Of a stretch of DNA of 64,000 bases, positions 3,202 to 25,174 are shown one piece after another (the first letter of the stretch is position 1; the number at the start of each line of letters is the position of its first letter). Both the position numbers and the translations under genes were made by a program. The notes below the pieces were generated by a model that was not told where the DNA came from, searched no databases, and worked only from the letters and a program-made list of their open reading frames with translations. The stretch lies in the IMG/VR virus record IMGVR_UViG_3300031825_000008, positions 1 through 64,000 of that record, one strand, 5' to 3'. The stretch is from a virus.

Positions 3202-3212
3202 ACGAGGAAAAC

Positions 3213-3742: not shown

Positions 3743-3743
3743 A

Positions 3744-4193: not shown

Positions 4194-4202
4194 AGGACTG
4201 TC

Positions 4203-8090: not shown

Positions 8091-8533
8091 TGGTGGACTC
8101 TACTAGAATCGCCCATCCCCTTACGCCTCCCAGCCCACGCTTACAACTGGTGGACAAAAGCGGGCTGCTGTCGAGTCCCGGCCTGTCCCAGATGCAGCAG
8201 ATATACAAATTGCTGAATGGGTTGGTGCCAACAATAGCCTGCGACTGCACGGGTACTAACACTTTGACGCTTACCCCGGTGAACATTTCACCTCAGGTTC
8301 AAAGGTATGTGGCGTTCCTCGGAATAGCGTTCGTGGCCGCAGATACTTCGACCGGCACTGTTAGCGCGTACCTGTCTCTCCCCGCCCCGACCGGCGACCT
8401 CGACACTCTCCCCGTGTACAAAGACAACGGCGGCACCGCTGCAGGGGCGGGCGATATCGTCGCGGGGCGGTTCTACCTTTTATATTTCGTCGACTCAGTA
8501 AATTCAGGCAACGGAGGTTTCGTACTTAAATGA
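8090..8533 (+). CDS. Hypothetical virion-module protein
   Basis: TAATG coupling; 147 aa. Confidence 0.5.
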   Translation: MVDSTRIAHPLTPPSPRLQLVDKSGLLSSPGLSQMQQIYKLLNGLVPTIACDCTGTNTLTLTPVNISPQVQRYVAFLGIAFVAADTSTGTVSAYLSLPAPTGDLDTLPVYKDNGGTAAGAGDIVAGRFYLLYFVDSVNSGNGGFVLK

Positions 8534-9318: not shown

Positions 9319-10094
9319 CTATTCCTCTTCTGGCCGGTGCCACACTCGCTAGTGGTATTCTTGGGTATAGCGCGTCTAAAGATGCTTCTTCGAAGCAATA
9401 CGACGCCGCGATGCAGGGGCTCGGCCAGCAGCGCGAGGCCATGGAGTATCAGAAGCAGATTCGTGGCGAGAATAAGGCCGCGCTCGACCCCTACATGAAT
9501 CTAGGCCAAGGGGCCAGTTCCACTATCTCCAGTCTGTACGGGTTCCAGGGTAGTGGAAACGAAAACCGAACTGCAGACTATAGTTCGTTCTATAATTCTC
9601 CTGATTATCAATTCGCCCAGCAGCAGGGCCTGCGCGCGCTCGATATGTCGGCGGCGTCGAAAGGCTTGCTGCAGTCGGGCGGACAGGGTCGCGCCCTTCA
9701 ACAGTTTGGTCAAGGGTTGGCTGGTCAGCAATTCGGTAATTACTTCCAGCGGATGATGGGTCTCGCCCAATTGGGTAACAGCGCCGCTGGAATGTTCGCC
9801 AACAGCGGCAACCAAGCCGCTGGAAACGTAATCAATGGCGCGAACAACATGGCGCAGTCCTATGGTAACGCCGGTCAGGCACAGGCATCTGGTATCGTGG
9901 GTGGCGCGAACGCTATTACCGGTGCGATGGGATCAGGTATTAACAATCTGATGCTTTATTCGGCTCTTAACAAGAGCCCCAGCGCTTATGCAGGCGGCAG
10001 CCCCATGAACATTACCCCGCCTCAAGTTGGTACATATTCTATGGGTCAAGGTAACATTGGTGGCACGGGTGGCGGGCTCGGAGGTCTGTACTAA
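9309..10094 (+). CDS. Gly/Gln/Ala-rich internal virion (ejection) protein candidate
   Basis: N-terminal hydrophobic segment, then Q/G/A/N-rich sequence ending GGTGGGLGGLY. Sits downstream of the hub gene, as in P22-like phages. Confidence 0.45.
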   Translation: MPVAIPLLAGATLASGILGYSASKDASSKQYDAAMQGLGQQREAMEYQKQIRGENKAALDPYMNLGQGASSTISSLYGFQGSGNENRTADYSSFYNSPDYQFAQQQGLRALDMSAASKGLLQSGGQGRALQQFGQGLAGQQFGNYFQRMMGLAQLGNSAAGMFANSGNQAAGNVINGANNMAQSYGNAGQAQASGIVGGANAITGAMGSGINNLMLYSALNKSPSAYAGGSPMNITPPQVGTYSMGQGNIGGTGGGLGGLY

Positions 10095-11488
10095 TGGCTG
10101 ATTACAACGTAGCACTCGGTGTAAAGCCCATCGAAATGGACTTGGGTAAGACGCTGAAGACGGCGGCTGACATTCAGTCGTCTCAAGCGTACACGACCAA
10201 CACTCTGGCGGAAGCCGAGCGTAAGACCTACGACCAGTCCCGTGAAGAAATTGGTCGCGCGGCCAAGCACCTGCTCATGATGCCGGAAGGCCCCGAGCGG
10301 GAAAAATTGTATCAAGGCTACGTCAACGACTTCACCAAGCGGGGGTTTGTGAAGCCCCACGAGGCCGAATACTTCTCCAAGATGAAGCCCTCCAACATGA
10401 TGTTGCAGCAGTTGGTGGCCAATTCGGTCCCAGTGGCCACGCATTCGCAGATCACTGGCGAGACCGCCGGTAACGAGGCGGCTACACGCTCACCTTATCA
10501 GACACAAGAAGTGGCCCCCACCAGCAGCGTAGTGCGGCCCGCTCAGTTGCCCGGAGCGCCGTCTTCGGTGCCGACTATGGGGGGTAAACCGCTTCCTACG
10601 CCTGTTGCCCCGATCAATGCGCAAGGCGTACCGGCCCCGAAGGGTGTTGGTCGCCCAACTTCGTCTATCGAAGCCGACAACGAACGTCGCAACGACCCAG
10701 TGTATCAGGCAGTTCCTCGTATTGAACCAGTCAAGAAGCCTGAATTGGAGCCGGGCGTCGCGCGTCAAGGTAAGGACCCCGCGCAACTGCTCGCTGATGA
10801 CGCGGCGGTCAAGTTTTATGATGAAAAGATTCGTGTGCCCGCCTCACAGGCGTCGGAGCAACGCGCCAACTACAGCACGCTCAGGACCGCGCTCGAGAAT
10901 GGTATCAACACCAGCAAGGCCGGTCCTGCGTTGGAAACGGTGTCTTCGTGGATGTATGCCGCCGGTATGGACCCGAAGGCTATTAAGGAATGGACGGGAA
11001 CCGATCCCACGTCCGCTGACATTTTGAAGAAGGCGACCGTTCAGGAGTCTATGAAGTTCGTCCGCGACACCATTGGTGCGCGCGAATCCCTGATGGCTAT
11101 TCAAGCGATCACTAGTGCGTTCCCTCATTTGGCCAACACCGCTGAGGGTAACCGCATGATGGTCGACATTATGGATCAGTTGTCTCAATATAAGCAAGAC
11201 ATGGGTAAATATGCGGGGGCGTTCTTCGAGAAGAACAACGACTCCGGCATGTCTGACCGCCTGAACGGTTTCGCTCGCTGGTGGAGCGAGAGCCACCCCG
11301 CCGAGCAGTACGTGTCCCGCGCGATGCCTCGTAATCCACCCCGATACGCAGACGGTGGCATCAACACCCGCGACCTCCAGCCGGGCGTCACTTATATGAT
11401 CCCTACGGGTAAGGAGCCTGACGGCAAACCGATCTGGGGTCGCGCTACGTGGGACGCTAAGGCTGCTATTTTCAAGCCGGTTCGATAA
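10094..11488 (+). CDS. Internal virion / ejection protein candidate
   Basis: TAATG coupling; 464 aa. The call is positional. Confidence 0.4.
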   Translation: MADYNVALGVKPIEMDLGKTLKTAADIQSSQAYTTNTLAEAERKTYDQSREEIGRAAKHLLMMPEGPEREKLYQGYVNDFTKRGFVKPHEAEYFSKMKPSNMMLQQLVANSVPVATHSQITGETAGNEAATRSPYQTQEVAPTSSVVRPAQLPGAPSSVPTMGGKPLPTPVAPINAQGVPAPKGVGRPTSSIEADNERRNDPVYQAVPRIEPVKKPELEPGVARQGKDPAQLLADDAAVKFYDEKIRVPASQASEQRANYSTLRTALENGINTSKAGPALETVSSWMYAAGMDPKAIKEWTGTDPTSADILKKATVQESMKFVRDTIGARESLMAIQAITSAFPHLANTAEGNRMMVDIMDQLSQYKQDMGKYAGAFFEKNNDSGMSDRLNGFARWWSESHPAEQYVSRAMPRNPPRYADGGINTRDLQPGVTYMIPTGKEPDGKPIWGRATWDAKAAIFKPVR

Positions 11489-13500
11489 TGGACGTCACCA
11501 AACTCCCCGCTCCCACCGAAGCGTCTTCGGCCAAGAAGGCTCAGGTTATTGACGCCCGTGGCATTTCCGTGGACGAAGTGAACAACTTGCTTCCTCCTGT
11601 ACCCGGCGCAAAAACGCAGGAGAAGCCCCCTGAGTGGCTCACCCCCGCTCAGGTCGAAGACAATTTCAATGCGGTCGACGACCACAAGGCCAAGGCCGCG
11701 ACTCCTAAGAAGTCGGAAACTACGGTCGGTCAACATATGATGATCGACCTCGATAATACCTATCGAGCCGCTGCTCAAGGGGTGACCCCGATCCTCGCCG
11801 CTCACGCCAAGAACTATCTTGGTGAAGCCGAAGAACGCGATGACGGTCGTTACATGTACAAGAACGAAAAGGGCGAACTGGTCGAGACCAACAATAAGGA
11901 GCACGTGATGCTCCGCGACCCGACCGACCAGAAATACAAAATTTACAAACGCACCAAGGACGTCGAAGTACCCAAGGCGGTCTCTATTGGTCATGCCATC
12001 AGCCCCGGCATGGTTGTGGGAGCGCCACCTATTAATCGCGCTGCTACTGCGGGGTCGAACATCCTCAACGCTACCAAGCGTCTAGAAGAGGCGACTGACG
12101 TTAAGGTTCCTATCGGGCGGGCGGCGGCATCGGACAGCGAAGGAATTCATAGGGCGGCGCGCATGTCGTCTCACTTGCCGGGCGGCGCGGGGGCGTTTGA
12201 ACAGAGCGCCCAAGCTACGGCGGGAAGACTTGGGCAAGCTGCGGACCGCGTCGCTGAAATTCCGCTTGGTGGAGTTGCGAAGGACGCCGAGGGCGCGGGT
12301 AACGCCGCCCGTGAAGGCATTACGCGGACCGCAGAGAAGGGTGGTATCCTCAGCCAGAAGGTCGACGCGGCGTACGCCAAGGTCGATGCATTGATGCCGA
12401 CTTCGGTCACTCCGTTGCCTGTTCCTGAGACTACCAAGACTGCACAGAAGCTTCAGACTGCCTTCGAATCCACCAAGAAAGAAGGCATCGACCCCGCCGT
12501 GAAGGAGGTGCTGGGGGCGGTTACCGATCCCAAGGGTCTGACTTACGAAGGCATCAAGAACCTTCGCACCATGGTGGGTGAAAAAATCGATCCCCGTGTT
12601 GTGGGGGGCGACGTGTCGCAGGGCGCGCTCAAACAACTCTATGGGGCGCTTACCAAGGACCTTCGCGAAGTCATCCTCCAGCGCCGACCGGACGGTTCTA
12701 TTCCTCCGGATGCCATACCACGCCTCAAGGCGTGGGAGCGTGCCAACAAGACGGCGAGCGCTGCGGCGGACCGACGCGAGAAACTGGCCACTCTGCTCGG
12801 TGCAGACACCAAGTCTGACGAGGCCATCTTCCATTCGATCTTGCGGGCCGCGCAAGATAAGTCGTCAGCCAACGCCAAGTTGCTAAATCTGGCACGGCGC
12901 TCGATGGCTCCTGACGAATGGTCGTCGGTAACTTCCGCCGTGATCGGTCGAATGGGGCGGCGCGTGACTGCTGAGGGTCAGCACTTCGACCCCGCCGTGT
13001 TTATTCGAGACTACGGACACATTCCTGAACGCAGCAAGGACGTGCTCTTCGGGGCCAAGGGGTCGACGCTTCGGCAGTCTCTCGACGACATTGAGAGAAT
13101 ATCTAACAAGTGGCCCACTGTTCGAGACATGTCTCACCGCACGTCGGAACTTGGTCATTTGGTGGGGGCGGCAGGCGTATGGCACAAGCCGTTGGAATTC
13201 TTGACGGGCGTAGCCCTGATTAAGAACGTGTCCGGTTGGCTGGCGCGACCCGCGACGGCGCGGTCTGTTGCCAAGTGGTCAGAGCGTTATCGAAACTTTA
13301 CCCTGCGCCCCGATGAAAAGGCGACGCGGCGAGTGCTGCTCGAAGCTACTCAGGAACTAGCCAAGGAGGTTGGCAAAGACCCTGAGACTGCCGCCAAGGC
13401 CCGTCAGGAAATGGAAGCTGCCGGAAAGACCGCCATCACGGGGGCCGCAATAATTGCGCATCTGGCCAAGAGAATTTATGGTGGGATCGAGAGGGAATAA
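11488..13500 (+). CDS. Large internal virion / ejection protein candidate
   Basis: TAATG coupling; 670 aa, helical and charged. The call is positional. Confidence 0.4.
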   Translation: MDVTKLPAPTEASSAKKAQVIDARGISVDEVNNLLPPVPGAKTQEKPPEWLTPAQVEDNFNAVDDHKAKAATPKKSETTVGQHMMIDLDNTYRAAAQGVTPILAAHAKNYLGEAEERDDGRYMYKNEKGELVETNNKEHVMLRDPTDQKYKIYKRTKDVEVPKAVSIGHAISPGMVVGAPPINRAATAGSNILNATKRLEEATDVKVPIGRAAASDSEGIHRAARMSSHLPGGAGAFEQSAQATAGRLGQAADRVAEIPLGGVAKDAEGAGNAAREGITRTAEKGGILSQKVDAAYAKVDALMPTSVTPLPVPETTKTAQKLQTAFESTKKEGIDPAVKEVLGAVTDPKGLTYEGIKNLRTMVGEKIDPRVVGGDVSQGALKQLYGALTKDLREVILQRRPDGSIPPDAIPRLKAWERANKTASAAADRREKLATLLGADTKSDEAIFHSILRAAQDKSSANAKLLNLARRSMAPDEWSSVTSAVIGRMGRRVTAEGQHFDPAVFIRDYGHIPERSKDVLFGAKGSTLRQSLDDIERISNKWPTVRDMSHRTSELGHLVGAAGVWHKPLEFLTGVALIKNVSGWLARPATARSVAKWSERYRNFTLRPDEKATRRVLLEATQELAKEVGKDPETAAKARQEMEAAGKTAITGAAIIAHLAKRIYGGIERE

Positions 13501-14915
13501 TGGTACAGCGCTGGTTTAACCCGGACGAACAGCTTTGTGACGAGACGGGCCTCCCGTATGCGGGCGGGTTCCTCTATTTCTATGTTACTGGAACTAGTAC
13601 CCCACTTGCTGTATATTCAAATTCGGGATTGTCTATTGCCCGTACCAACCCGGTCGTGTTGGACAGCGCGGGCCGCGCGGGGGATATCTTCCTGCAGCAG
13701 GCTGCCTACAAGGTGGTCCTGAAGGACGTCAACGGGGTTGAAATCTGGACCGCCGATCCGGTGTGGTCTTCGGACTACAGCACAGTCGCTCAATTCCAAG
13801 TGTACGCAGGAAACCCCAATGGCAACGTAGCAGGCACCGCCGGTACTCAGGGTGGCCTTCCCTCGAGCGTGATCTGGGACTCCACCAACGAAATTCTGTA
13901 TGTTTGCACCACCACTGGCGTCGCCGCTGCAGCGGTCTGGACAGCGGTAAATGGCACCGCCGCCGACACATTTACCCCTCCGCCGCAAGGTTATCTTACC
14001 CCTACTTCGGGCACTCCTGTTATTACTTCCGACGTGACCGCTGGCACTGCCGTGTACTACACTCCGTATATTGGCAACACAGTACCCCTGTACAACGGCA
14101 CCACTTTTACCGTAACCGAATTCGCGGAGCTTACGCTTACTCTGTCCGCCAGCCATGCGGCCAGCACATTGTATGATGTATTCGCCTTCGATAACAGCGG
14201 CACGATCACTTTGGCGACGGGTCCTGCGTGGACCACCAGCACTGCTGGCGCTGGGGCGCGCGGCACGGGTGCCAGCACTACTCAAATTCAACGTCTGAAT
14301 GGCATCTGGGTAAATTCGGTACAAATGACTGGACGCAATGGTGCGACTACTTACACTATTGCAGCCAATTTCGGCACTTATCTAGGTACGATTCTTATCG
14401 ATGCCACTCCGGGCCAGATCACTTGCACCGTTACATGGGGCCAGAGCCGTGTCTGGGGGGTCTGGAATGCTTATAACCGTCAGACTCTTGAACTGCAGAG
14501 CGGCGATGCCACGGCGACATGGACATACAACAACCTGACTGTTCGACAGTCTAACGGTGCGACTGGTAACAAATGTACTGTGTTGTGTGGTCTAGCTGAA
14601 GAAATCATCGACGCGGTCTTCCTGCAGAAAGTAGATGTGGTGGGCATCACTACAGGCTCCAACGGAGGGATGCAAGTCGGTATCGGTCTGAACTCTACGA
14701 CAGTTATGTCTGGGGTGCCGGGAGAAGTTTTGACTGGTAATGCTGGTGCCACCACCAACGCATCTGCTACGGTGGTGTCTAGATACAAGGCAGTGCCTTT
14801 CCTCGGAATAAATGTGTTCAACATGTTGGAGAATTCCGTCGTGTCCACGGTTGGTTCGAGGACATGGAACGGTACTTCGGCCAATATGATGATGACGACT
14901 AAGTGGAGGGGGTGA
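13500..14915 (+). CDS. Tail fibre / receptor-binding protein
   Basis: The N-terminal block FNPDEQLCDETGLPYAGGFLYFYVTGTSTPLAVYSNSGL...NPVVLDSAGR...YKVVLKDVNGVEIWTADPV matches the recalled N-terminal domain of phage fibres and spikes. The rest is T/G/A-rich. Confidence 0.55.
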   Translation: MVQRWFNPDEQLCDETGLPYAGGFLYFYVTGTSTPLAVYSNSGLSIARTNPVVLDSAGRAGDIFLQQAAYKVVLKDVNGVEIWTADPVWSSDYSTVAQFQVYAGNPNGNVAGTAGTQGGLPSSVIWDSTNEILYVCTTTGVAAAAVWTAVNGTAADTFTPPPQGYLTPTSGTPVITSDVTAGTAVYYTPYIGNTVPLYNGTTFTVTEFAELTLTLSASHAASTLYDVFAFDNSGTITLATGPAWTTSTAGAGARGTGASTTQIQRLNGIWVNSVQMTGRNGATTYTIAANFGTYLGTILIDATPGQITCTVTWGQSRVWGVWNAYNRQTLELQSGDATATWTYNNLTVRQSNGATGNKCTVLCGLAEEIIDAVFLQKVDVVGITTGSNGGMQVGIGLNSTTVMSGVPGEVLTGNAGATTNASATVVSRYKAVPFLGINVFNMLENSVVSTVGSRTWNGTSANMMMTTKWRG

Positions 14916-15124
14916 TGCCTAAGGTCAACACTAATTGGAGACTCATCCTCAGGAAAGCATGGAGCGTCCAGCTTGCCGTCTTCTGGGGTGGGCTGTCCGG
15001 GGCGATGCTTGGCCTCGCCGCATTTTCAGACATTCTGAACCCCCATTGGTTCCTCGCTCTTAACGTAATCGGGTACGCCACTATTGCTGGTGCCCGCCTC
15101 CTCAAACAGCCGGGACTCGATTAA
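14915..15124 (+). CDS. Two-TM holin (pinholin) candidate
   Basis: 69 aa with two hydrophobic helices, directly upstream of and coupled to a SAR endolysin. Confidence 0.5.
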   Translation: MPKVNTNWRLILRKAWSVQLAVFWGGLSGAMLGLAAFSDILNPHWFLALNVIGYATIAGARLLKQPGLD

Positions 15125-15678
15125 TGCCAATCGGCGAAGCTTTTAAGAAACCTAAACCCGCGCCCAGAGCAAGACCCAAGGTCAAACCTGCTGGCGGCAC
15201 GGCCAAAGTAGCCGGGGCAGGTATTGGAGCGACGACCGGCGCGGTGCTCGCGTCCGCCGTGGCTCTCATTCAGCCGTGGGAAGGTCTGTTCACTAAGCCT
15301 TATTTCGATATCGTGGGCGTGAAGACCGTGTGCTACGGGGCGACTGCCGCCGAGGGCGTCGACCTGAACCGCACTTATACCAAACAAGAATGCGCGGACA
15401 TGTTAAAGAAGTCCATCGTCAAATACGACAATGGAATCAAGGCGTGCATCACGCGCGAAATGCCGGACTCCGTTCACGTCGCCATGATTTCGTTCTCGTA
15501 TAACGTCGGCGTCGCCGGAGCATGCAAATCCACTGCTGTTCGACGCATCAACGAAGGCGACTTCCGTGGCGCATGCGACGCGCTCCTTATGTGGAACAAG
15601 GCCGGGGGTCGCGTGGTTAAGGGTCTCGACAACCGCCGCCACGACGAGCGACGTGTCTGTTTGAAGGACGTAACATGA
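15124..15678 (+). CDS. SAR endolysin, GH24 (T4/P21 lysozyme family)
   Basis: Catalytic region PWEGLFTKPYFDIVGVKTVCYG (E-8-D-5-T spacing). N-terminal Gly/Ala-rich weak TM segment GAGIGATTGAVLASAVALI. Confidence 0.85.
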   Translation: MPIGEAFKKPKPAPRARPKVKPAGGTAKVAGAGIGATTGAVLASAVALIQPWEGLFTKPYFDIVGVKTVCYGATAAEGVDLNRTYTKQECADMLKKSIVKYDNGIKACITREMPDSVHVAMISFSYNVGVAGACKSTAVRRINEGDFRGACDALLMWNKAGGRVVKGLDNRRHDERRVCLKDVT

Positions 15679-16022
15679 GCATGTTTTTCGCGGGCCTGTG
15701 GCCCATCATCATGAAGTTTGGTGCTTCCTTTGCCATCATGGCGGGGCTCGGGGCGTTTGCTTGGTTCTCCCCCGTGTTTAAGAAAACGGCCCTATGGCTG
15801 ATGCTGCTGGTCGGCTTGACTACAGCAGCGTACACCGTTGGCGTCATCGACGGTGAGAACCGCGTTAAAACTCAATGGCTTAAGGCCGTAGATCAAGAGG
15901 CTGTAGATGGTGAAGAAGATCATAACGACGCTGTTGTTACTGTCGAGCGCGACACTTCTGACGTCGTGCGGAAAGACCCTTGCAACCGCAACAACTGGAG
16001 GCCCGGTCAGTCAAGCTGCTGA
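15675..16022 (+). CDS. i-spanin candidate with N-terminal membrane anchor
   Basis: ATGA coupling to the endolysin gene. Hydrophobic N-terminus, then a charged periplasmic part. The lipoprotein gene overlaps its 3' end. Confidence 0.55.
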   Translation: MSMFFAGLWPIIMKFGASFAIMAGLGAFAWFSPVFKKTALWLMLLVGLTTAAYTVGVIDGENRVKTQWLKAVDQEAVDGEEDHNDAVVTVERDTSDVVRKDPCNRNNWRPGQSSC

Positions 16023-16146
16023 AAAGCAGGCCCGGTGCGCCCGTTGGCGCAAATTGGATTTCGACGCCAAGGAAGACACTGCCCGGACCGTACACGGTAT
16101 TCGGGTCCACAATCAGACGGGCATTAACGCCAAGTGTTGGAAATAG
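15907..16146 (+). CDS. o-spanin lipoprotein, overlapping the i-spanin gene in the +1 frame
   Basis: Signal peptide plus lipobox (MVKKIITTLLLLSSATLLTSC). AGAGG RBS. Confidence 0.7.
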   Translation: MVKKIITTLLLLSSATLLTSCGKTLATATTGGPVSQAAEKQARCARWRKLDFDAKEDTARTVHGIRVHNQTGINAKCWK

Positions 16147-16150
16147 AAAG

Positions 16151-16309
16151 ATGGACAAGCAGAGCGCCCTTGAAGAACGACTCCGGGAACTGGAACAGTT
16201 CAAGACCAGAGTAGAAACTGGTCAACGATGGTTGCTCTGTGCAGCGGCTGCGGTCGGGTTTATTGTCACCACTGCGGTAAGTATTTGGTCCGGGTTGCAC
16301 GGCAAATAA
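16151..16309 (+). CDS. Small protein with a C-terminal TM segment
   Basis: 52 aa; coiled-coil N-terminus and TM segment LLCAAAAVGFIVTTAVSIW. Confidence 0.4.
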   Translation: MDKQSALEERLRELEQFKTRVETGQRWLLCAAAAVGFIVTTAVSIWSGLHGK

Positions 16310-16345
16310 GACTTTCTTCCTAGGCACCCACGTAGTTTACTGTCT

Positions 16346-16364
16346 CGCCTACGAACCGTAGGCG
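16346..16364. promoter_or_regulatory. 19-bp palindrome upstream of the HTH-phosphoesterase gene
   Basis: CGCCTACG-aac-CGTAGGCG, with perfect 8-bp arms, 18 nt before ATG 16382. Confidence 0.4.
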
Positions 16365-16381
16365 CAAATAGCGGAGAGCGC

Positions 16382-17506
16382 ATGCCTAAGGTTCACACGG
16401 ACGAAGAACTCCTGCAAGCAGTCGAAGTTCGTAATCGCCATCGCACGATGAAGGCCGCCGCCGCTGAATTGGGCGTCAAGTGGCACACCCTCGAACTCAA
16501 ATTGCGCAGGGCCGCTGAACGCGGTCTGGATGGTTCAACCCCCGCGCCTCTCCCAATTGGTCAAGTCGTCTCCGGTATCTCCAGCCTCTACAAGATGAAT
16601 GAGGCGGGAGAATGGGAGGAAAAGCTCCAGTGGGTCAAGACCAAATCGGACAAGCAAACCGAAGACTTCATAGCGGCGATCAAGGCCACCTTCGACCAAT
16701 ACGAGGGTCGCGCGAAGCCAGCACCCGCCCCCAAGACCTCCGACAAGGACCTACTGTCGGTTTATCCAATTGCCGACCAGCACAACGGCCTAATGGCGTG
16801 GGGCGAAGAGACCGGTGAAGACTACGACCTCAAGATCGGCGCGGACAGGTTGCGCGCCTGCGCCTCACGCCTGATTTCTCAGTCTCCCGACGCCAAGCAA
16901 GCCATTATCCTTAATCTGGGCGACTGGCAGCACAACGACGACTCCAAGAACGCGACGCCTGCCTCGGGCAACGTGCTCGACGTCGATGGTCGTTATATGA
17001 AGGTGCTAACGACCGGCGTGCAACTGATGCAGGACGTGATCGAACTGGCGCTCCAGCGTCACGACACGGTCCTTGTTCGAAATCTGCCGGGCAACCACGA
17101 CCCCCATGCGGCGATTGCACTCACCGTGGCGCTGAACGCGTTCTACAGCAAAGAGCCGCGCGTGACCATTAGTGTCGATCCGTCGGAATTCTTCTTCCAT
17201 CGGTTCGGCCAGAACCTACTGGGTGCTAACCACGGCCATCGTATGAAGCCCGCCGACATGGCAATGATGCTGGCCGTTCGGTGCAAGGAAGACTGGGGTG
17301 CGACCAAGTTCAAGCACTTCATGTTTGGCCACATTCACCACGCGACCCTGAAGGAAATCGGAGGGGTGATGGTTGAGAGCTTCCAGACGCTGGCGGCGAA
17401 GGACGGTTGGTCCCACGCGAAAGGCTTCACGTCGGGGCAATCCTTGACGGGGCTGACTTACCACAAAGAGGACGGCCCGGTCGGGCGTCATCAGGTCCAT
17501 ATCTGA
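16382..17506 (+). CDS. N-terminal HTH fused to a calcineurin-like metallophosphoesterase
   Basis: Motifs DQHNG, GDWQH, GNHD, GANHGH and GHIHH. N-terminal HTH-like segment KAAAAELGVKWHTLELKLRRA. Confidence 0.75.
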   Translation: MPKVHTDEELLQAVEVRNRHRTMKAAAAELGVKWHTLELKLRRAAERGLDGSTPAPLPIGQVVSGISSLYKMNEAGEWEEKLQWVKTKSDKQTEDFIAAIKATFDQYEGRAKPAPAPKTSDKDLLSVYPIADQHNGLMAWGEETGEDYDLKIGADRLRACASRLISQSPDAKQAIILNLGDWQHNDDSKNATPASGNVLDVDGRYMKVLTTGVQLMQDVIELALQRHDTVLVRNLPGNHDPHAAIALTVALNAFYSKEPRVTISVDPSEFFFHRFGQNLLGANHGHRMKPADMAMMLAVRCKEDWGATKFKHFMFGHIHHATLKEIGGVMVESFQTLAAKDGWSHAKGFTSGQSLTGLTYHKEDGPVGRHQVHI

Positions 17507-17564
17507 GGGGTGCGACGTCGCCCGGCGCGTGGGGTGCCGGTGCGGTCTGCGGGGGTGGCCCGCT

Positions 17565-17591
17565 ATACCTATAGCCGATCAGGCGTTTGAG
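17565..17591. repeat. 27-bp motif, copy A (exact inverted copy at 58759-58785)
   Basis: ATACCTATAGCCGATCAGGCGTTTGAG. Overlaps the last codons and the stop of the SNF2 helicase gene. Confidence 0.9.
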
Positions 17592-18991
17592 CGCGTCCGT
17601 CGCAGGGCGCGGACGGCATCGACCACAGCGGTCGCTAAATCAGACTTCTTTTCCATAGCGTACAGTTGGGCACGGTCAATGGGAGACATAACCGGGGCAA
17701 AATACATGCACATTCGGTCTTGCTCACCGCGATGGATACGATCTTGGACCTGAAGCATGTCACGTTGGTTGAACGACAAATCATGGAAAAACATGCGATG
17801 GCACCTGTCCCGCCCCTCACCAGCAATCAACGTATGTCCCATTGCAGTCGCACCGATCTGACCGACTAAAATTCGACACGTAGGGTCGTTGTTAAATTTG
17901 TTTTTTTGTTCAGCCAACTCTTCTGGTTTCATCGACCCTTTGATATAAGCTGGATTTAGACCTTCTTTCTTATATAGGCTGAACAAAGCGTCCCCCATGG
18001 CCTTGTAAAAATAGACGGTTATCATCTTCCCGTCTCCTGACTCCATTAAATCAAGAGACGCTATAGCCTTAGGATTTTTCTCAATAGGTTCGATTAACGC
18101 CATCTTATCACCGTCTAACAACAGACCACTAGACACCTGCCTCAATTTGTCGCTTTGGACTAATACGAGGTCCGCTGTAAATTCGTGCTTGTCCAACAAC
18201 GTGTAAAAATCTTCCAGCATTTCTCGATAATGTTTTTCTTGCTTTGTTGTCATCTGTAATGGGAGATTAGGCCACACTTTCTCAGGGGCGTCTGCCCACC
18301 ATTCATCCTTTGTGGCGCGGATCGAACACCGCTCTTGGATAGCATGTAGCTCTTTTTCATTTTTTACACCGACAATCTGTTTACCCATATACCCGCCAAC
18401 CACTGCATAGCGGTTGCGGAACACGTATGGGTTAACCCCGTCCAACTCCCCGATTGCCTTCAACTGCGGGAATAAATCCATAACATTTTGAACCAAAGGT
18501 GTACCATTTAGTAAGCGAACGCCTGCTGCTCGTTTGCTCAAATCGAGAATCGATTTAGCTGTCTGGGACTTATAATTCTTAATGTAAGACGACTCATCGA
18601 CGACCAACAAACACGGTCTGGAGTCCAGTAGTGCCTGCACCCGCTCGCCCCCTGTACTGCGCACAGCTTCAAAATTTATAACATTTAAGCAGGGCTTGTC
18701 AGGTGTTCCATGTTTCAACGCGTCGCGTGGCCACATGGTCGTCTCGATTTGATCCAAACCCCACTCGTAGGGGGCCTCTATCCACGAACTTTTGAATGAA
18801 TTAGGGCAGACCACTACTACAGTGTTTACGTCTCCGAAATTCTCGATCCAGTCGTTCAGTGCCAGCGCGGTCTTCCCCAGTCCTTGGGACAACCACCATC
18901 CATATTTCTTCTTGCCATGACACCGTTTTAGTGCTTCGACCTGAACCGGGTATGGTTTACCTTTGAGGTGCCACGCTGGATTGTAGTTCAT
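17579..18991 (-). CDS. SNF2/RAD54-family helicase
   Basis: Motifs LSQGLGKT (I), LLVVDESS (II), LLNGTPLQN (III) and QVQDRIHR (VI). Confidence 0.85.
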   Translation of the reverse strand: MNYNPAWHLKGKPYPVQVEALKRCHGKKKYGWWLSQGLGKTALALNDWIENFGDVNTVVVVCPNSFKSSWIEAPYEWGLDQIETTMWPRDALKHGTPDKPCLNVINFEAVRSTGGERVQALLDSRPCLLVVDESSYIKNYKSQTAKSILDLSKRAAGVRLLNGTPLVQNVMDLFPQLKAIGELDGVNPYVFRNRYAVVGGYMGKQIVGVKNEKELHAIQERCSIRATKDEWWADAPEKVWPNLPLQMTTKQEKHYREMLEDFYTLLDKHEFTADLVLVQSDKLRQVSSGLLLDGDKMALIEPIEKNPKAIASLDLMESGDGKMITVYFYKAMGDALFSLYKKEGLNPAYIKGSMKPEELAEQKNKFNNDPTCRILVGQIGATAMGHTLIAGEGRDRCHRMFFHDLSFNQRDMLQVQDRIHRGEQDRMCMYFAPVMSPIDRAQLYAMEKKSDLATAVVDAVRALRRTRSNA

Positions 18992-19392: not shown

Positions 19393-19814
19393 TTGAATTC
19401 TTTCCACCAATACAGAGAGTATGGCCACGCCCAGCCGGGCTGCGGGTCGAACATCATGTAGCCTGATTTTATGAAGTTGTTTGCCGATTCGACACTAGAA
19501 GTCGTGTCGGAGATTATGCCGTTCCACCCGTGTCGCTTGGCCCGTCTCTCCATTACCCGCATCAGACGACGCTGGAGCCCGTGCCCCCGAAACACGGGCA
19601 GGACCCCTACGCGGATAAAGTAACCGTAATTATCATACCACGTGGAAGGGATCAGACCTATGAACGCGGCGGGGATACGGCCCTGATAAGCGATCCACCA
19701 ATCCCCCTCTGCGTAGTTAGGGTGAGCAGTACCTTCTTCAAAGGTAGCAATATGTAATTCTCTAAGCAGGTCTTTTTCTTCTTCACCATCAACCTCTTCT
19801 ATTTTAAATTCCAC
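19389..19814 (-). CDS. GNAT-family N-acetyltransferase
   Basis: Acetyl-CoA motif A: RVGVLPVFRGHGLQRRLMRVMERRAKRHGW. Confidence 0.8.
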   Translation of the reverse strand: MEFKIEEVDGEEEKDLLRELHIATFEEGTAHPNYAEGDWWIAYQGRIPAAFIGLIPSTWYDNYGYFIRVGVLPVFRGHGLQRRLMRVMERRAKRHGWNGIISDTTSSVESANNFIKSGYMMFDPQPGWAWPYSLYWWKEFK

Positions 19815-20391
19815 GGCCCCCCTCCGTATAATGGGCCTTGATCGACGGAAGGACGGTCGTCTGCCACAACATCGACAGCTTGCCTTCCTCGGCGGGGAGG
19901 TCGCGCCACGACCCCTCCAACGACGTCATTCCCTTCTCGATGCAATATTCCACGACCCGGTTGCCCATTCTATGTTGTCCGATAAGGAACAATATCGCGT
20001 CGAGTTTGTCGGCGCAATGGACAATACGAATGGCCTCGTCGTGTTGTGCGTCAGTAGCCTCCATACGCTCGGACAGATCGAGAATAGACGGCATCTTTTC
20101 TTCCATCTGCTCGTAGATGAAATTAGCGGCCTTCTCTTCGTCGATCACATGTTTCTTGGCAGGACCGATAACGTCTCCGGTGATAGTCTCGTCGGCGTCG
20201 TGGATCAGGGCTTGCCACATTAGGTAATCCATCGGCCCCTTCCACCCAATCACGTCCGCCATAATTCGTGAATATATGGTCACGTAGAACGAGTGCGCGG
20301 CGACGTTGTCCCTATTTCCAGCCATAAGAATGGCCCAGCGCGGGACGAACGCCATGGTGCGCAGTTCAGGGGAGAAGGGGTTTGTTTTCAT
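19804..20391 (-). CDS. datZ: HD-domain (YfbR-like) phosphohydrolase; DatZ-type dATPase candidate
   Basis: NVAAHSFYV (H) and LIHDADETITGD (HD..D). Lies next to the MazG and PurZ genes. Confidence 0.6.
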   Translation of the reverse strand: MKTNPFSPELRTMAFVPRWAILMAGNRDNVAAHSFYVTIYSRIMADVIGWKGPMDYLMWQALIHDADETITGDVIGPAKKHVIDEEKAANFIYEQMEEKMPSILDLSERMEATDAQHDEAIRIVHCADKLDAILFLIGQHRMGNRVVEYCIEKGMTSLEGSWRDLPAEEGKLSMLWQTTVLPSIKAHYTEGGRGI

Positions 20392-20454
20392 TTAGGACCC
20401 ATATTTATGATAGTTCCAATCATGAACAGCGCAGACCCGATTAGATAACACCAA

Positions 20455-20829
20455 TTAGCCATCTTTTCTACCGAACCTCTCGTCCAGCTTAACGATGTTG
20501 GCGTCCATAATCTCTTCCAGCGTGAAGCCAAACCGCTGCGCGATCCTCACGAAGTAGTGCAACTGATCGCCCAGTTCGAGCAGCAGATCGGCCTTAATGT
20601 CCCGACCGTCCCGGACGTGCTTTTTCAGGAGTTCGACTACCTCGCCGGTCTCGCCCGCGTAGCCGGTCGCCATGATAAACAAACTCTTGAGATCGTTCTC
20701 ATAGTGATCGTCCGTCCAGTTGTTTCGAACATACGCCTGAAACGACAAGCTGTCGGTCTTCATTTTCGGCAGTGCGCCGAAACCTTCCACGATTTCGTAG
20801 TCCAAGTCCGGATTGAAAGGTCCACCCAT
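20455..20829 (-). CDS. mazZ: MazG-like all-alpha NTP pyrophosphohydrolase; MazZ candidate
   Basis: Motifs ETGEVVELLKKH and ELGDQLHY. 124 aa. Confidence 0.65.
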   Translation of the reverse strand: MGGPFNPDLDYEIVEGFGALPKMKTDSLSFQAYVRNNWTDDHYENDLKSLFIMATGYAGETGEVVELLKKHVRDGRDIKADLLLELGDQLHYFVRIAQRFGFTLEEIMDANIVKLDERFGRKDG

Positions 20830-21098
20830 TAATTCCTCCTATACTTCCAATAAAGCGCGAGCCATACGAGGTTCGGGAGTAGCGCTACAATCGTCCCGCC
20901 AAGTGACCACCACTGGTTGAGGTGGGGGAAGTAGTAAAGGTCCCACACGCCCCAAGCTGAGAACGCGGCGCATGGCCAGTAACTCACTCCGCGTACCGAT
21001 TTGTCCTTCCACGCCCGTCGCACGTTCAGCCAATTGAGCAGACCGGCGACGAGCAGAAAGCACGAGTTTATTAAGTCAGGTGACCACGTAATGCTCAC
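20829..21098 (-). CDS. Small 3-TM membrane protein (SemiSWEET/PQ-loop-like by eye)
   Basis: 89 aa with three hydrophobic helices; segment AWKDKSVRGVSYW lies between TM1 and TM2. Coupled at both ends (overlaps purZ by 23 nt; TAATG with mazZ). Confidence 0.4.
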   Translation of the reverse strand: MSITWSPDLINSCFLLVAGLLNWLNVRRAWKDKSVRGVSYWPCAAFSAWGVWDLYYFPHLNQWWSLGGTIVALLPNLVWLALYWKYRRN

Positions 21099-22170
21099 CC
21101 GCGTCCTCCGTGGTCGGCCCCCACTGGTAGATTACCTTGGGCGGCGGTTGCATCAACACTTTGCTGGCCGATTGGATTGAAGCGACGATCTGGTCGAACA
21201 TCGGCTTTTCCTTCACGTAGTTGCAGAAGGTCAGAAATACGTAATCTGGGTCGCAGATATTGAACGTCTCAACGAGTTGCTGCATAGAGAAGGTGAAAAC
21301 TCGACGCACCCGTTTGGTAACGGTCGTAATTTCAGCTTCAACTCCGAGTTCTTCCCATGAGGTTTCACGCTGGTCGTAAAAGTGAGGACCAGATGTTCCG
21401 AGTGTAGCTCCATCTTCCACGATGTTTCCAACTCGGATAGGGAACGTTCGTAGCGTGACCATCGTCCCGTTGTAAAACTGGGGATGGATGTTAGCATCTG
21501 AGAGTCCCTGATTAGGCGTACAGTCTCTAGAAGTTGTGTAAGGGTAAAAACCCGAGTGGTTGAGGCTGAGGGACACACCTTGCGGGACCTCCACGAGTAC
21601 CGAATTGCCAACGCGTAGCTGGCGGTTCAAATCCACCACACCTTTGGTGAACTTCGCGAGGAATGGGTGGTCCTTTGCCACCATACCGGTTCGCAGGACC
21701 TTGCGAGAGAGCGCTTCGCCGACCCCCTTGCGAGTGGACGCAATTTTTGTCTGCCCGCTGTCTGCTCTTCCCTCCGCCTCTTTACACTCGTCAGTGATAA
21801 CTGCGGCGTAGGGATGGATAAAAAGAGGTCCGTTGAACGGGTTGTCATTCAGTTCTTTCTCGAACCCCACCGGATCAATGATCGCACCAGCATTCAGATA
21901 CACGGTGCCCGCTTTGCCTGATCCGAGTTCGTCCTGCGCGATAAGCGACGCAGTAGGCAAATGAAACACAACCCTTCGACGGCCTTTGTGTATGGAAGTG
22001 TGGCCAGCCTGAGCAGCCGCATTAGTAGTGACAATGTCGAACGCGCGACCTTCTTTAGCGAGTTCATACGCGGCCCACGCAGCGGCGCATCCTTTTCCTT
22101 CACTTCCCCACTGACCCCCGATCAGTACGCTCGCGAACCCCTTTACTTCGAACCCCGTCAGTGGACGCAT
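21076..22170 (-). CDS. purZ: PurZ (PurA-family N6-succino-2-amino-2'-deoxyadenylate synthase)
   Basis: GGQWGSEGKG (PurA has GxQWGDEGKGK, so Asp is Ser here), AGHTS, ASTRKGVG, PQGVSLSLNHSGFYPYTTSR, IRVG and TKRVRR. Short form of 364 aa from ATG 22170, which has a GGAGAAG RBS. Confidence 0.78.
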   Translation of the reverse strand: MRPLTGFEVKGFASVLIGGQWGSEGKGCAAAWAAYELAKEGRAFDIVTTNAAAQAGHTSIHKGRRRVVFHLPTASLIAQDELGSGKAGTVYLNAGAIIDPVGFEKELNDNPFNGPLFIHPYAAVITDECKEAEGRADSGQTKIASTRKGVGEALSRKVLRTGMVAKDHPFLAKFTKGVVDLNRQLRVGNSVLVEVPQGVSLSLNHSGFYPYTTSRDCTPNQGLSDANIHPQFYNGTMVTLRTFPIRVGNIVEDGATLGTSGPHFYDQRETSWEELGVEAEITTVTKRVRRVFTFSMQQLVETFNICDPDYVFLTFCNYVKEKPMFDQIVASIQSASKVLMQPPPKVIYQWGPTTEDAGEHYVVT

Positions 22171-22567
22171 TAGACTTCTCCAATCTTTCTCTGATTTTAG
22201 CCAAGATTTGATCGATGGTGGACCCCAATACGCCGGTCTTGGCCCGGTCATCGATTAGGTTCCCGTAGGCTTGGGCGTCGAGTAGGATGGCGCAACAGGC
22301 CATGACGTGGCCGAGGTGATGGGCAAGGCTGTCAGGAGCGTCCTCTTCTCCGTCTGCCCAAAGTTGAAGGTGACGCGCCGCCGCTGCGATATAGACGCTA
22401 GCTTCGACCTTAGTCTCGCGGAATTTGTACGGACCATATTTGATTTCACCATCAAACATTGCGTGCGCCATGTGGGCCATTGCTACCGGGGGCAGTAGGA
22501 AGAGATTTAGCTTCTTCGCCCCCGCTGTGGCCTTAGGATTGGTTGGGAGTGTATTTGCAGATTTCAC
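22100..22567 (-). CDS. dATP/dGTP diphosphohydrolase-like protein (DUF5664-type N-terminal domain)
   Basis: NPKATAGAKKLNLFLLPPVAMAHMAHAMFDGEIKYGPYKFRE...AAARHLQLWADGEEDAPDSLAHHLGHVMACCAILLD matches the recalled family consensus. Confidence 0.55.
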   Translation of the reverse strand: MKSANTLPTNPKATAGAKKLNLFLLPPVAMAHMAHAMFDGEIKYGPYKFRETKVEASVYIAAAARHLQLWADGEEDAPDSLAHHLGHVMACCAILLDAQAYGNLIDDRAKTGVLGSTIDQILAKIRERLEKSNASTDGVRSKGVRERTDRGSVGK

Positions 22568-22958
22568 TGACTATGACCTCTTCTCGTCTTCCACGCGGTA
22601 GTAGTACGTAATCGTCGACAGCAAGCGGGGGCATTGTTTCCTCGTCCCCGACCATGCGGTAAACCTTAATATACAGCCCCTTGTCGCTCCTTACCCCTGA
22701 AATTACACCACCCACCCCATCAGAATTTATGTATTCTCGTAGCCATTTAAGCTGCAGCGGAGTGACGGCTGGCGTGATTTCGGATTTCATCTTCGGCATG
22801 TCGTCAATCTTCACTTCCCACATGCCCGTGTATTTACTGGGCAGCTGTAGTAACAGATCAGGAACCCCCACCAGAAACCGGCTCGACATTTTGTGGGCGA
22901 AACCCCCCACCTCCCGCGCCGCTTTCGCTATCAGACTTTGAAATGCCAGTTCCTTCAT
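22533..22958 (-). CDS. PD-(D/E)xK nuclease (VRR-NUC / resolvase-like)
   Basis: GVPDLLLQLP...GMWEVK core motif. Confidence 0.6.
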   Translation of the reverse strand: MKELAFQSLIAKAAREVGGFAHKMSSRFLVGVPDLLLQLPSKYTGMWEVKIDDMPKMKSEITPAVTPLQLKWLREYINSDGVGGVISGVRSDKGLYIKVYRMVGDEETMPPLAVDDYVLLPRGRREEVIVSEICKYTPNQS

Positions 22959-23124
22959 GTTCCTTGATCCTTACGATCTTAGCGGTCGGCTCCAGCACGT
23001 GCTCCGCAGCGTCCAGTTGTTTGCCCATCCCCGCGTCCACCGCGTCCTGAAAGGCGTCTTCCCAGTTGTCGCGGATCGGGGCGATAGCCACTCCGTTCAC
23101 TCTGAACTGATACATGTAACTCAT
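22858..23124 (-). CDS. Hypothetical protein
   Basis: 88-aa ORF. The first ~55 aa look coding; the tail runs 100 nt into the nuclease gene in another frame. Confidence 0.35.
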   Translation of the reverse strand: MSYMYQFRVNGVAIAPIRDNWEDAFQDAVDAGMGKQLDAAEHVLEPTAKIVRIKEHEGTGISKSDSESGAGGGGFRPQNVEPVSGGGS

Positions 23125-24974
23125 TCTTCAACTCCAAAAGTGGCCTCTGCCCAGTTGCGACCTTCGCCTGCATCGACCGCCATCGGGACGTCCAACTTTA
23201 TCAGGCAGTTGGGTCCAAAGTCAGTCATAATTTGAAGGCAACGGTCGTAATGCTTGCGGTTGTCTTCCGAGAACGAATAGTCGATAGCATCGTGAACGTT
23301 GTTGAGCAGGCTGATCGGTCGCCCCTCTGACGCCAGATAGTCGTCGATTTCGACCATCTTCAACTTGAGCACGTCCGCGTTGCCGCACTGTAGCAGGCGG
23401 TTCACCGCCGTGTAGGCTTTGTTCGGGTCATTAAGTCGTGCACGGCGACCCAATAGGGATAGCACATAACCTCGGGCGCGCATCGTCTGCTCGGCGCGCT
23501 TCTGGAGCGGCTTAATCTCAGGGAGACGTTTGAAATACTCCCTAAGCTGACCATCCACCTTCTCAGGGTCCGCACCGTATTTCTCAACGATCACCTTCTT
23601 CCCGCCGCCCGTAATGAGGGTCTGGTTGATGCGCTTACCGACCTCACGGGCGTCCTTCTGTGCCGCCTTGTCCATCAACTCCCATTCAGGGTTCATGGCC
23701 TTGGCAACCGCCGTGTGGGCGTCTTCGAACGGTTGCTTACGATATCCGTTGAGAAGAACTTCACTGCGGCTGTAATAGGCGAGCAGACGTGGTTCGCACT
23801 GGCTGTAGTCGACCGAACCCCAAATTTCGCCGTCGTCAGGGACGAAAATCGAACGATGGATGCGGCCAATTTCGGCGTTACGCTTGTTGGCCTGCTGCAT
23901 GTTGGGGTTGCTGGACGACAGCCGTCCGGTCACCGTCCCGTATTCGTCTCCCCGCAGCTGGTTGAATTCGGGGTGGACGCGCCCTTTCCACAGATGGGTG
24001 TCGATCATCGGCTCAATGAACGAATTGAGAAGGTTCGACCACTTGCGAACGGCCACTATGTTCTGGCCCGCCGGGTACTTTATAAGCCACGCTTCCGGAA
24101 ACGACGGTGAGCCCTTAGGCGTCGTCGGCCAGTCCGTGTGCCCAGCCTCTTCCATGATCTTACGCACCTGAGAGGGGGCGCGCGAGTTGAAATCATCAGG
24201 CAGCTTGCGAAGGGCGTCCTCGCGTTTGCTCTCGGCCAGCGCCTTGATATTCATTAGGCGCTCTTCGTCGATCTTGATACCGTGCAACATCATTCGTGCC
24301 AGCACCGGGATCATTCGACATTCAATGTCGTGCACCTTGGCCAGTTCTTGGTCCATGATGCTTGTCACTTGTTTGTAGCGCAGCTGCCACGTCGACGTGC
24401 CGTCCGTCTCCGCGTAGTCGACGGCGATAGGGTCATCACCCGCTAGGCACCAATAGTAGCCCATCGCGCCCTTGCCTTTGCCTGCGGCCTCGGGCACGTT
24501 AGCCATAATATGGTCGTAAATGGCGATCTTTTTAGGCTGCACCCCCGCTAGTTGAGAGCAAACGTCCAGACTGAACCCCGACTGCCATTCGTTCAGGAGT
24601 GGAGCGTTAATCGCGGTGTCTTCGAACCGGCCCTCGATCTTGAGACCCTGCCGGTACATGAATTTGATATCGAAGTTGAAGTTGTGGCCGAACTTGAACA
24701 CGTCCTGACGGGACAGGCGCTTGATGATCGCTTGCTCCATCGGGTGGATAGAACCATCCCACCCATCGTTGGTCTGCGGGACGGTCACACCTTCGATGTT
24801 ACCTCCGGGCCTGTGCCGGAACGGCAGGTAATACGAGTCGTCCGGACGCTCGCCAAACGTGAGCACGTACCCGATAATGTGGTTCTTGCGCCAGTCGAGG
24901 CCAGTAGTTTCGACGTCGACACAGACTTCATTAGAGACTTCGAGACGCTTGAGGGCTTCTTCAACTCTGCTCAC
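23121..24974 (-). CDS. dpoZ: Family-A DNA polymerase with 3'-5' exonuclease; DpoZ candidate
   Basis: Exo motifs VDVETTG, HNFNFD and YAETD. Pol motifs VDYSQCEPRLLAY (A), KRINQTLITGGG (B) and NVHDAI (C). GTG start in a GTGA overlap (ORF is open to 25094). Confidence 0.8.
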   Translation of the reverse strand: MSRVEEALKRLEVSNEVCVDVETTGLDWRKNHIIGYVLTFGERPDDSYYLPFRHRPGGNIEGVTVPQTNDGWDGSIHPMEQAIIKRLSRQDVFKFGHNFNFDIKFMYRQGLKIEGRFEDTAINAPLLNEWQSGFSLDVCSQLAGVQPKKIAIYDHIMANVPEAAGKGKGAMGYYWCLAGDDPIAVDYAETDGTSTWQLRYKQVTSIMDQELAKVHDIECRMIPVLARMMLHGIKIDEERLMNIKALAESKREDALRKLPDDFNSRAPSQVRKIMEEAGHTDWPTTPKGSPSFPEAWLIKYPAGQNIVAVRKWSNLLNSFIEPMIDTHLWKGRVHPEFNQLRGDEYGTVTGRLSSSNPNMQQANKRNAEIGRIHRSIFVPDDGEIWGSVDYSQCEPRLLAYYSRSEVLLNGYRKQPFEDAHTAVAKAMNPEWELMDKAAQKDAREVGKRINQTLITGGGKKVIVEKYGADPEKVDGQLREYFKRLPEIKPLQKRAEQTMRARGYVLSLLGRRARLNDPNKAYTAVNRLLQCGNADVLKLKMVEIDDYLASEGRPISLLNNVHDAIDYSFSEDNRKHYDRCLQIMTDFGPNCLIKLDVPMAVDAGEGRNWAEATFGVEE

Positions 24975-25174
24975 GCTTCCGTCACTTTCTCGTACATTCG
25001 GTTCAGAACGGCCCATTGCTTGGGACTGAGGTACATTCGCGCTCCGTATTCCTTGTAGCGCTTCTCTTGGTCCGCGAAGAATCCCGCCTCCCACTCGCTC
25101 AGCTTGGTGCGACGGTCGGCGAGGGTGATCATGTATTCCCGTAGCTTCTGCTCTTCTTCGTCAGTCAACGGCAT
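24971..25174 (-). CDS. Hypothetical protein
   Basis: GAGGAAG RBS; 67 aa. Confidence 0.5.
   Translation of the reverse strand: MPLTDEEEQKLREYMITLADRRTKLSEWEAGFFADQEKRYKEYGARMYLSPKQWAVLNRMYEKVTEA

Follow-up and report, generated by a model that had tools for sequence, protein, structure and literature searches.

What does it mean when a phage genome carries the same short sequence, in inverted orientation, at two distant gene junctions? The window, i.e., the whole stretch of 64,000 nt analysed here, contains the 27-mer ATACCTATAGCCGATCAGGCGTTTGAG exactly at positions 17565-17591 (plus strand) and 58759-58785 (minus strand). A sequence-only reading of the window had reported this reverse-complementary pair and had taken it as a mark of the 3' ends of both non-late transcription units. 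The pair was found as described, and it extends to an inverted repeat of 33 nt with 97% identity, i.e., one mismatch (32/33), whose arms are 41,167 nt apart. We denote by M the 33-mer read as CTCAAACGCCTGATCGGCTATAGGTAT(A/G)GCGGG, which lies on the minus strand at site A (copy A) and on the plus strand at site B (copy B). Given the evidence below, the repeat appears to stem from a single copy-and-paste from one gene junction to another and does not look like a conserved transcription-end signal.

The repeat and its two sites

When up to three mismatches are allowed, the 27-mer matches at these two sites only, and 100 dinucleotide shuffles gave no match. The 33-nt pair is the best inverted repeat of the window by a wide margin, with the next pairs at 72-81%, i.e., of chance quality. 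The genome was assembled as a circle, of which the window covers 64 kb, and is available in two assemblies of 67,120 and 67,231 bp. We rebuilt a circle of 67,090 bp from the window and the 3,090 bp missing from it, taken from L058. Here, exactly two copies of M are present even at 8/27 mismatches, the third-best site showing 9/27, and half-motif searches match at the places of copies A and B only. The 33-bp repeat is real and not a matter of chance. All genome copies that we fetched are identical to the window, so that effectively one genome is available for study.

The plus strand from 1 to 17506 encodes virion genes, a lysozyme and lastly a DNA-repair exonuclease. The minus strand carries, from about 47.3 kb down to 17579, small early genes, a primase/helicase, PolA, a PurZ/MazG/HD set and, as the last gene, an SNF2 helicase. 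From 48.1 kb on, the plus strand encodes accessory genes, a tRNA-Glu (anticodon CUC, 57461-57537) just upstream of a strong terminator and the terS cluster, and then small genes (58178-58984) that run into terS, an EndoVII-type endonuclease, terL and the portal gene. With regard to this map (Table 1), the copies do flank the late module geometrically, i.e., the block from terS to the exonuclease. The earlier statement that both share one orientation relative to local transcription also holds: each reads CTCAAAC..GGTAT along the local gene direction, which for two sites has a 50% chance of occurring by accident.

Table 1. Positions of the repeat, of its associated patches and of genes and signals discussed in the text (window coordinates unless a relative is named)
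Feature	Position	Strand	Remarks
Copy A of M	17559-17591	-	CTCAAACGCCTGATCGGCTATAGGTATAGCGGG on minus strand
Copy B of M	58759-58791	+	CTCAAACGCCTGATCGGCTATAGGTATGGCGGG; 58784-58786 is the small-ORF ATG
Perfect 14-bp palindrome GCTATAGGTATAGC	17562-17575		within copy A
Copy B counterpart of palindrome, GCTATAGGTATGGC	58775-58788		one change; still a G.U pair on the CTCAAAC strand
Element E, CCGCCCGTGCGC	58747-58758	+	directly upstream of copy B; reverse complement of GCGCACGGGCGG
Degenerate E-like stretch GTCGCCCGGCGC	17517-17528	+	just past exonuclease stop; by eye and alignment, weak
(A)GCGCACGGG[CT]GG element	L006 11736-11748; L007 11445-11457; L059 11400-11412; window 58747-58758		
11-mer CCCCCGCAGAC	17545-17555	-	3 nt beyond copy A
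Second CCCCCGCAGAC 11-mer	58838-58848		46 nt beyond copy B, within small ORF; encodes PPQT
DNA-repair exonuclease (phrog_704)	16382-17506	+	last plus-strand gene, convergent with helicase
SNF2-type helicase	17579-18991	-	last gene of minus-strand replication unit
HD/YfbR-like dATPase candidate	19804-20391	-	
MazG	20455-20829	-	
PurZ-like adenylosuccinate synthetase	21076-22251	-	
Family A polymerase	23121-25094	-	
Sigma-70 promoters	38208-38263; 40383-40411; 42911-42939	-	three of the four promoters make up the 45-nt repeat family D3
Canonical intrinsic terminator	58122-58160	+	13-bp stem and T-run; directly upstream of small-gene cluster
Conserved 58-aa gene (..MPSQLQPDHGPHK*)	58569-58745	+	upstream of copy B
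Conserved 66-aa ORF (MAGR..QTY.GT.SGYGPTR.DSVGYNP..)	58784-58984	+	begins in copy B, overlaps terS start
Terminase small subunit (terS)	58953-59513	+	
EndoVII/HNH-type genes	window 59546-59941; L007 11469-11852; L059 1674-2090, 9570-10004; L054 13696-14394		

At site A, the last 13 nt of the helicase gene (end ..RRTRSNA-TGA) are the first 13 nt of M, and the stop codon at 17579-17581 falls within the copy. The reading as a gene-end motif stands here, i.e., copy A closes the last minus-strand gene. No terminator or promoter consensus is present in the 72-nt gap between the helicase and the stop of the convergent exonuclease. On the minus strand, the stretch beyond the helicase (17480-17558) is C-rich and G-poor; its C/G ratio of 1.9 is in the top 2.6% of genomic windows, compared to 0.88 downstream of copy B. 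It thus resembles a loading site for Rho that would not depend on M.

Copy B, in contrast, lies inside a cluster of co-directional genes. It does begin 14 nt past a gene stop (that of the 58-aa gene, 58743-58745), as the sequence-only reading had it, but that reading had missed a start codon: the last two bases of the 27-nt copy B and the next base form the ATG of a 66-aa ORF. Its homologues in three relatives show 18 invariant residues and nucleotide differences at third codon positions; by this pattern of conservation, the ORF is a real gene. The gene caller missed it in this genome and called it in three relatives. It belongs to a group of four small conserved genes ahead of terS (62, 64, 58 and 66 aa), which always precede terS in relatives and two of whose products end in ..NPDHGW and ..QPDHGPH(K/R).

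In the relatives L054, L057 and L114, the homologues of the 66-aa and the 58-aa gene overlap as TGATG or TAATG with no spacer, whereas in the window 38 nt separate the TGA from the ATG. These 38 nt are therefore a derived insertion into a translationally coupled pair and not the end of a module. A better candidate for the unit boundary is the intrinsic terminator 600 nt upstream of copy B, the sole canonical one of this region, since the small-gene cluster starts right after it; we consider it more likely to be the boundary than copy B.

Make-up of the insertion and its counterparts in relatives

The 38-nt insertion consists of a G, the 12-mer CCGCCCGTGCGC (element E) and the first 25 nt of M. 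In the genome and about 0.9 Mb of fetched loci, site B and the helicase-3' junction of L007 are the only places with an exact match to the 12-mer of E. The helicase/exonuclease junction of L006 contains an exact stretch of 11 nt and that of L059 an 11/12 match; the shuffle p-values for L007, L006 and L059 are <0.0005, 0.0035 and 0.014, respectively. The 10-mer AGCGCACGGG is found in the same material at these three junctions and nowhere else, while one-mismatch matches of E at other places are scattered and compatible with chance. In all cases, the orientation of E relative to the late genes is identical. What is left of E at site A of the window is a degenerate stretch. Site B is shown to hold a derived insertion of 38-39 nt that is patched from two pieces, E in direct and M in inverted orientation, each with a counterpart at site A.

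With regard to the relatives themselves, the late-operon end of all three carries a conserved non-coding element, i.e., (A)GCGCACGGG[CT]GG plus about 20 conserved bases (GTC[GC]TGACCAGACG..). RNAalifold on the site-A junctions of four genomes yields no conserved structure.

The flanks of copies A and B share a further exact word, the 11-mer CCCCCGCAGAC (p about 0.007 compared to genomic windows), and a gapped alignment of the two downstream flanks has p-values of 0.003-0.03 against the same type of background. The 11-mer is possibly a patchy extension of the repeat. Since it is part of the ORF at site B and recurs beside copy A, exchange in both directions is suggested. The direction of copying is ambiguous, as E points from A to B and the 11-mer from B to A; taken together, the junctions seem to have exchanged short patches, perhaps more than once. 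At the joins of the patches, TGAG, GCGC and (A/G)GCGGG are common, i.e., the shared words are short and GC-rich, and one base is off at the E|M join. These microhomologies are imperfect; they fit template switching and are not decisive.

Absence of the motif from relatives had been named as grounds against the sequence-only reading. As far as testable, the motif is indeed absent from the closest relatives at each junction: neither site A of L006, L007 and L059 (helicase 69-71% identical) nor site B of L054 (TerL 78%) contains M. In SRR6986819_1933 and in JAWVHA010001454.1 of GCA_040384245.1, for which both junctions were recovered, no word of at least 13 nt links one junction to the other. Their helicase gene overlaps the convergent gene, so there is no spacer that could hold a signal. 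The convergence of helicase and late genes and the order of small genes and terS are conserved in relatives. Two resemblances were discarded. Motif-like stretches at site A of L006 (CTTAAACGCCTG, opposite orientation) and L007 (GCTATACC) are marginal, with p-values of 0.026 and 0.061 in sliding-window nulls (L059: 0.89), and a 15-nt exact match CTCAAACGCCTGATC in a tail gene of L007, which codes for LKRLI in common codons, is regarded as chance.

Database searches agree with this picture of restricted occurrence. The exact 27-mer has no match in IMG/VR and the 23-nt core none in JGI metagenome contigs and GTDB genomes, which also speaks against an att or REP sequence taken from a host. Among 50,697 phage records, nucleotide searches with the surroundings of copies A and B found nothing, and tblastn gave distant matches only (for the helicase 33%, in an Ochrobactrum phage; for TerL no more than 46%, in BcepC6B-like and other podophages). 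Judged by such similarity, no cultured phage is close, while metagenomic relatives exist. Scans of IMG/VR with the helicase or TerS as single proteins returned nothing useful, and a scan with an alignment of the 58-aa protein no confirmed loci; an alignment of TerS retrieved relatives of at most 40% identity only, on contigs that do not pair with helicase loci.

Given these observations, we tentatively favour, with doubt slightly outweighing conviction, that sequence was copied between both junctions in this lineage only and that any regulatory effect is incidental. The repeat would then be the footprint of one or a few ectopic copying events private to this phage lineage, in which short stretches passed between the helicase/exonuclease junction and the stop/start overlap of the small genes ahead of terS. 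The exchange probably went through a template switch in the course of replication or break repair, or through illegitimate recombination with later gene conversion. The identity over 27 nt would reflect recency or homogenisation of the copies and no dedicated function. As side effects, M would now supply the final codons and the stop of the helicase gene, the small ORF would have lost its coupling to the upstream neighbour and have its start codon inside a weak hairpin, and a 33-bp inverted repeat would have arisen that could occasionally recombine, or pair as RNA.

We prefer the copying account because the small genes overlap with no spacer in L054, L057 and L114, because E matches site A of relatives while the rest of the spacer is inverted M, and because the 11-mer points to exchange. 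It is further preferred because M is missing from the closest relatives as well as from the IMG/VR, JGI and GTDB searches, because relatives with both junctions show no repeat that links them, and because neither a third copy nor an RNA structure beyond chance, an Rfam match or a promoter or terminator consensus was found. Other observations count against it. The core is identical at 27/27 (32/33) positions, i.e., more than the pair of E and the E-like stretch (about 10/12 plus an indel); on very small numbers, this higher identity could mean that selection has kept the core. The two copies share their polarity to incoming transcription and occupy non-coding or gene-end positions, and the sole mismatch preserves a G.U pair in a small hairpin on the transcribed strand. 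The ambiguous direction of copying and the imperfect microhomologies count on this side too, and the nearest relatives are only 70-78% identical in protein.

Among known processes, templated insertions (template switching or microhomology-mediated break repair) resemble site B, as a short derived insertion of two patches, one direct and one inverted, is found with donors less than 80 nt apart elsewhere in the genome and with short GC-rich stretches of possible microhomology at the joins. The likeness is incomplete: the microhomologies are imperfect, E fits the relatives' site A better than the window's own, and the 11-mer suggests two-way exchange and not one clean event. If the copying account is true, the locus is a clean example of how ectopic copying makes intergenic spacers, gene ends and dispersed inverted repeats. 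This would not be surprising, and it cautions against inferring function from one exact repeat. If, on the other hand, selection has kept the core, M would represent either a new minimal two-site form of orientation-dependent transcription insulation or a genome flip without an invertase.

Signals at the repeat and competing readings

Neither copy is followed by a T-run, and the earlier conclusion that M is not an intrinsic terminator is borne out by our scans, which yield no terminator at 16500-18500 and, within 57500-59500, three sites of which none is at the motif. A scan for sigma-70 promoters (-35/-10, spacing 16-18 nt) finds none at either copy region, while the same scan yields four at 38-43 kb. 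These lie on the minus strand (38.2-42.9 kb), are near-consensus with 10-11/12 matches and include three with an extended -10 element. The leftward early and replication genes are under their control, so host RNA polymerase clearly serves the phage at the early stage of infection.

RNA folding of both strands of both copies is no better than for shuffled sequences (z +0.6 to -1.1). The only shared fold is an A/U-rich hairpin of 5-6 bp, GCUAU-AGGU-AU(A/G)GC, with -5.5 kcal/mol. That the sole difference between the copies keeps a G.U pair in this hairpin is suggestive, as one substitution of one base goes. At copy B, the AGG and AUG of the small ORF fall within the hairpin, which could thus damp translation of this ORF. 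Rfam 15 gives no match at gathering score in the window; around copy A no match with E<=1 is found and near copy B an unrelated one with E=0.23.

The main rival explanation takes M for a functional, orientation-dependent signal on the transcribed strand or RNA, i.e., a two-copy system of stoperator or Nun/nut type, by which a phage or host factor halts or modulates RNA polymerase and keeps early and middle transcription off the late block. We regard this as unlikely. It would account for the shared polarity of both copies to local transcription, for the exact position of copy A at the end of a leftward unit of about 30 kb driven by the sigma-70 promoters at 38-43 kb, for a convergent junction that has no intrinsic terminator, and for a perfect 27-nt core made of a linear box and a small hairpin whose only change is G.U-compatible. 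Site B fits this poorly. Copy B is part of a conserved, otherwise translationally coupled cluster upstream of terS, such that a halt at this point would cut off terS as well, except where a late promoter lies beyond it; the next ORF begins in the motif, and a canonical terminator already stands 600 nt upstream. In addition, the contexts downstream differ, with a C-rich, rut-like stretch after copy A only, and there are just two copies, no conservation of motif or arrangement in relatives and no candidate factor. No DNA-binding regulator or homologue of the L5-type repressor was recognised, and a GcrA-like regulator, present in L057 and L114, is missing from the window.

Two known systems are close to this rival. 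The nutL/nutR sites of lambda and the put sites of HK022 are near-identical sites of a linear box plus a hairpin, one per oppositely oriented operon and with the same polarity to transcription. The copies of M are likewise inverted in the genome and of one polarity to transcription. The nut and put sites, however, are promoter-proximal and act before terminators, whereas the copies of M are at or near distal ends: copy A is the last feature of an operon of about 30 kb, and copy B is 10 kb into a plus-strand unit and downstream of a terminator. Neither an N-, Q- or Nun-like factor nor a boxA or boxB is recognisable here. Stoperators of cluster A mycobacteriophages, i.e., sites of L5 gp71-type repressors, are asymmetric, lie in short intergenic spaces with an orientation that follows transcription, and halt elongation; each genome has more than 20 of these 13-mers, which depend on a dedicated repressor (PMC9283540). 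The orientation of M follows transcription as well (at two sites), but M has two copies of 27-33 nt, one of which overlaps a start codon, and no repressor homologue is seen.

Recombination was another role proposed for the pair. Here, homologous recombination between the copies would turn round the 41-kb early/replication half with respect to the 26-kb late half, giving genome isomers and homogenising the copies. A near-perfect inverted repeat of 33 bp is what this needs, and patches appear to have moved between the sites in both directions. The native junctions read exonuclease-M'-helicase and 58-aa gene-E-M-small ORF, the flipped ones would read helicase-M-small ORF and 58-aa gene-E-M-CCACCCCC-exonuclease. 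A flip would leave the four flanking genes unbroken, since the helicase stop and the small-ORF start fall within M or at its edge. We nevertheless consider this quite unlikely, as the available assemblies and the relatives all show one arrangement at both junctions and no benefit is evident. None of 10 loci has the flipped order, i.e., terS after the helicase on the same strand. As to a programmed inversion, for which recombination sites had been suggested, no serine or tyrosine recombinase was found: resolvase, recombinase and integrase Pfam families are absent from the called genes of L004, L058 and L060 and from the scans, with many small ORFs matching nothing. A length of 27-33 bp is also at the lower limit for homologous recombination, i.e., the repeat is near the minimum.

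A stronger version is that the junctions recombine repeatedly via the 33-bp repeat, with no dedicated invertase, thereby flipping the 41-kb half and moving patches of the flanks. We hold this to be very unlikely. If true, the replication operon of one isomer would read into the small ORF and terS, while in the other isomer this operon would be walled off by convergent transcription, which would amount to a genome-scale switch of the input to the late genes.

In the invertible segments of Mu (G/gix), P1 (C/cix) and e14 (P/pix), the inverted crossover sites measure about 26-34 bp; these segments of 1-4 kb carry alternative tail-fibre ends and lie beside a serine invertase gene. With 33 nt and 97% identity, M has the length of such sites. 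In contrast, the repeats are 41 kb (or 26 kb) apart, no invertase was found and a flip alters no coding sequence. The PeSL cassettes of T4-like phages are short, regulatory-looking repeats at borders of genes and modules that promote recombination. M is also a short repeat at such borders, while PeSL cassettes are multi-copy, direct and equipped with recognisable early promoters, compared to two copies and no promoter consensus for M.

The inverted orientation of the copies makes transcripts from the same strand complementary, which allows for a reading at the RNA level. Late plus-strand transcripts that pass the exonuclease stop would carry the complement of M and could form a 33-nt duplex with M where translation of the small ORF starts; pairing of this anti-M with the 3' end of the helicase mRNA could provide antisense control or an RNase III site. 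On the plus strand, the scan showed no terminator from the exonuclease stop to copy A, and the AGG and AUG of the small ORF are part of M at site B. We judge such pairing highly improbable, as the argument is purely inferential, the arrangement is absent in relatives and no structure or family signal was found.

Finally, M could serve a phage-type RNA polymerase, or a sigma factor that escaped recognition, as a promoter, with both copies firing into the late block. The conserved block of 27-33 nt has a promoter-like length, copy B faces terS and the late genes, CTATAGG occurs in T7-type promoters and TCAAAC-N15/16-GGTAT is loosely ECF-like. Still, this is scarcely credible. No RNA polymerase family was detected by Pfam/PHROG scans or in precomputed Pfam lists covering about 90% of the 67,090-bp genome, i.e., no single-subunit enzyme, and the same scans found no sigma factor in the full genome. 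The largest proteins are the primase/helicase, the portal protein, a tail protein and PolA. A T7-like polymerase split over adjacent ORFs of 419 and 473 aa was considered and dismissed, with the first belonging to a peptidase family and the second without match. Furthermore, a start at TATA|GG leaves a leader of 3 nt, copy A would produce only RNA antisense to the exonuclease and lysis genes, and M has neither further copies nor a match to sigma-70. T7-type promoters, by comparison, occur as many copies of a consensus of roughly 23 bp ahead of genes.

Further features of the genome

The phage group concerned is uncultured and carries the PurZ/DatZ/MazZ gene set for 2-aminoadenine DNA. In the window, the minus strand at 19804-25094 holds the genes typical of phages that replace adenine with 2-aminoadenine (Z-genome), and the order PolA-PurZ-helicase is conserved in more than 10 metagenomic relatives. 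Free-standing EndoVII/HNH-type endonuclease genes are located at a different place in each relative; the copy of L007 is at the helicase/exonuclease junction. These varying positions suggest active homing and frequent double-strand breaks at these junctions.

Between the small early genes, 1.58 kb (44437-46016) are free of called genes and show terminator-like hairpins on both strands (45068-45094 on the plus strand, 46009-45992 on the minus strand); this region may hold an origin or a non-coding RNA. The plus strand at 50304-54212 carries a tandem array of eight or nine paralogues, each about 133-154 aa long. They match no family, apart from a weak metallophosphatase signal in the last one, and their 3' ends and ribosome-binding regions make up the repeat families D1 and D2. 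A LemA-family gene beside a TPM-domain gene (55585-57388, plus strand) forms a pairing that is common in bacteria, and the accessory module also contains a NADAR-domain gene (49539-49958, plus strand).
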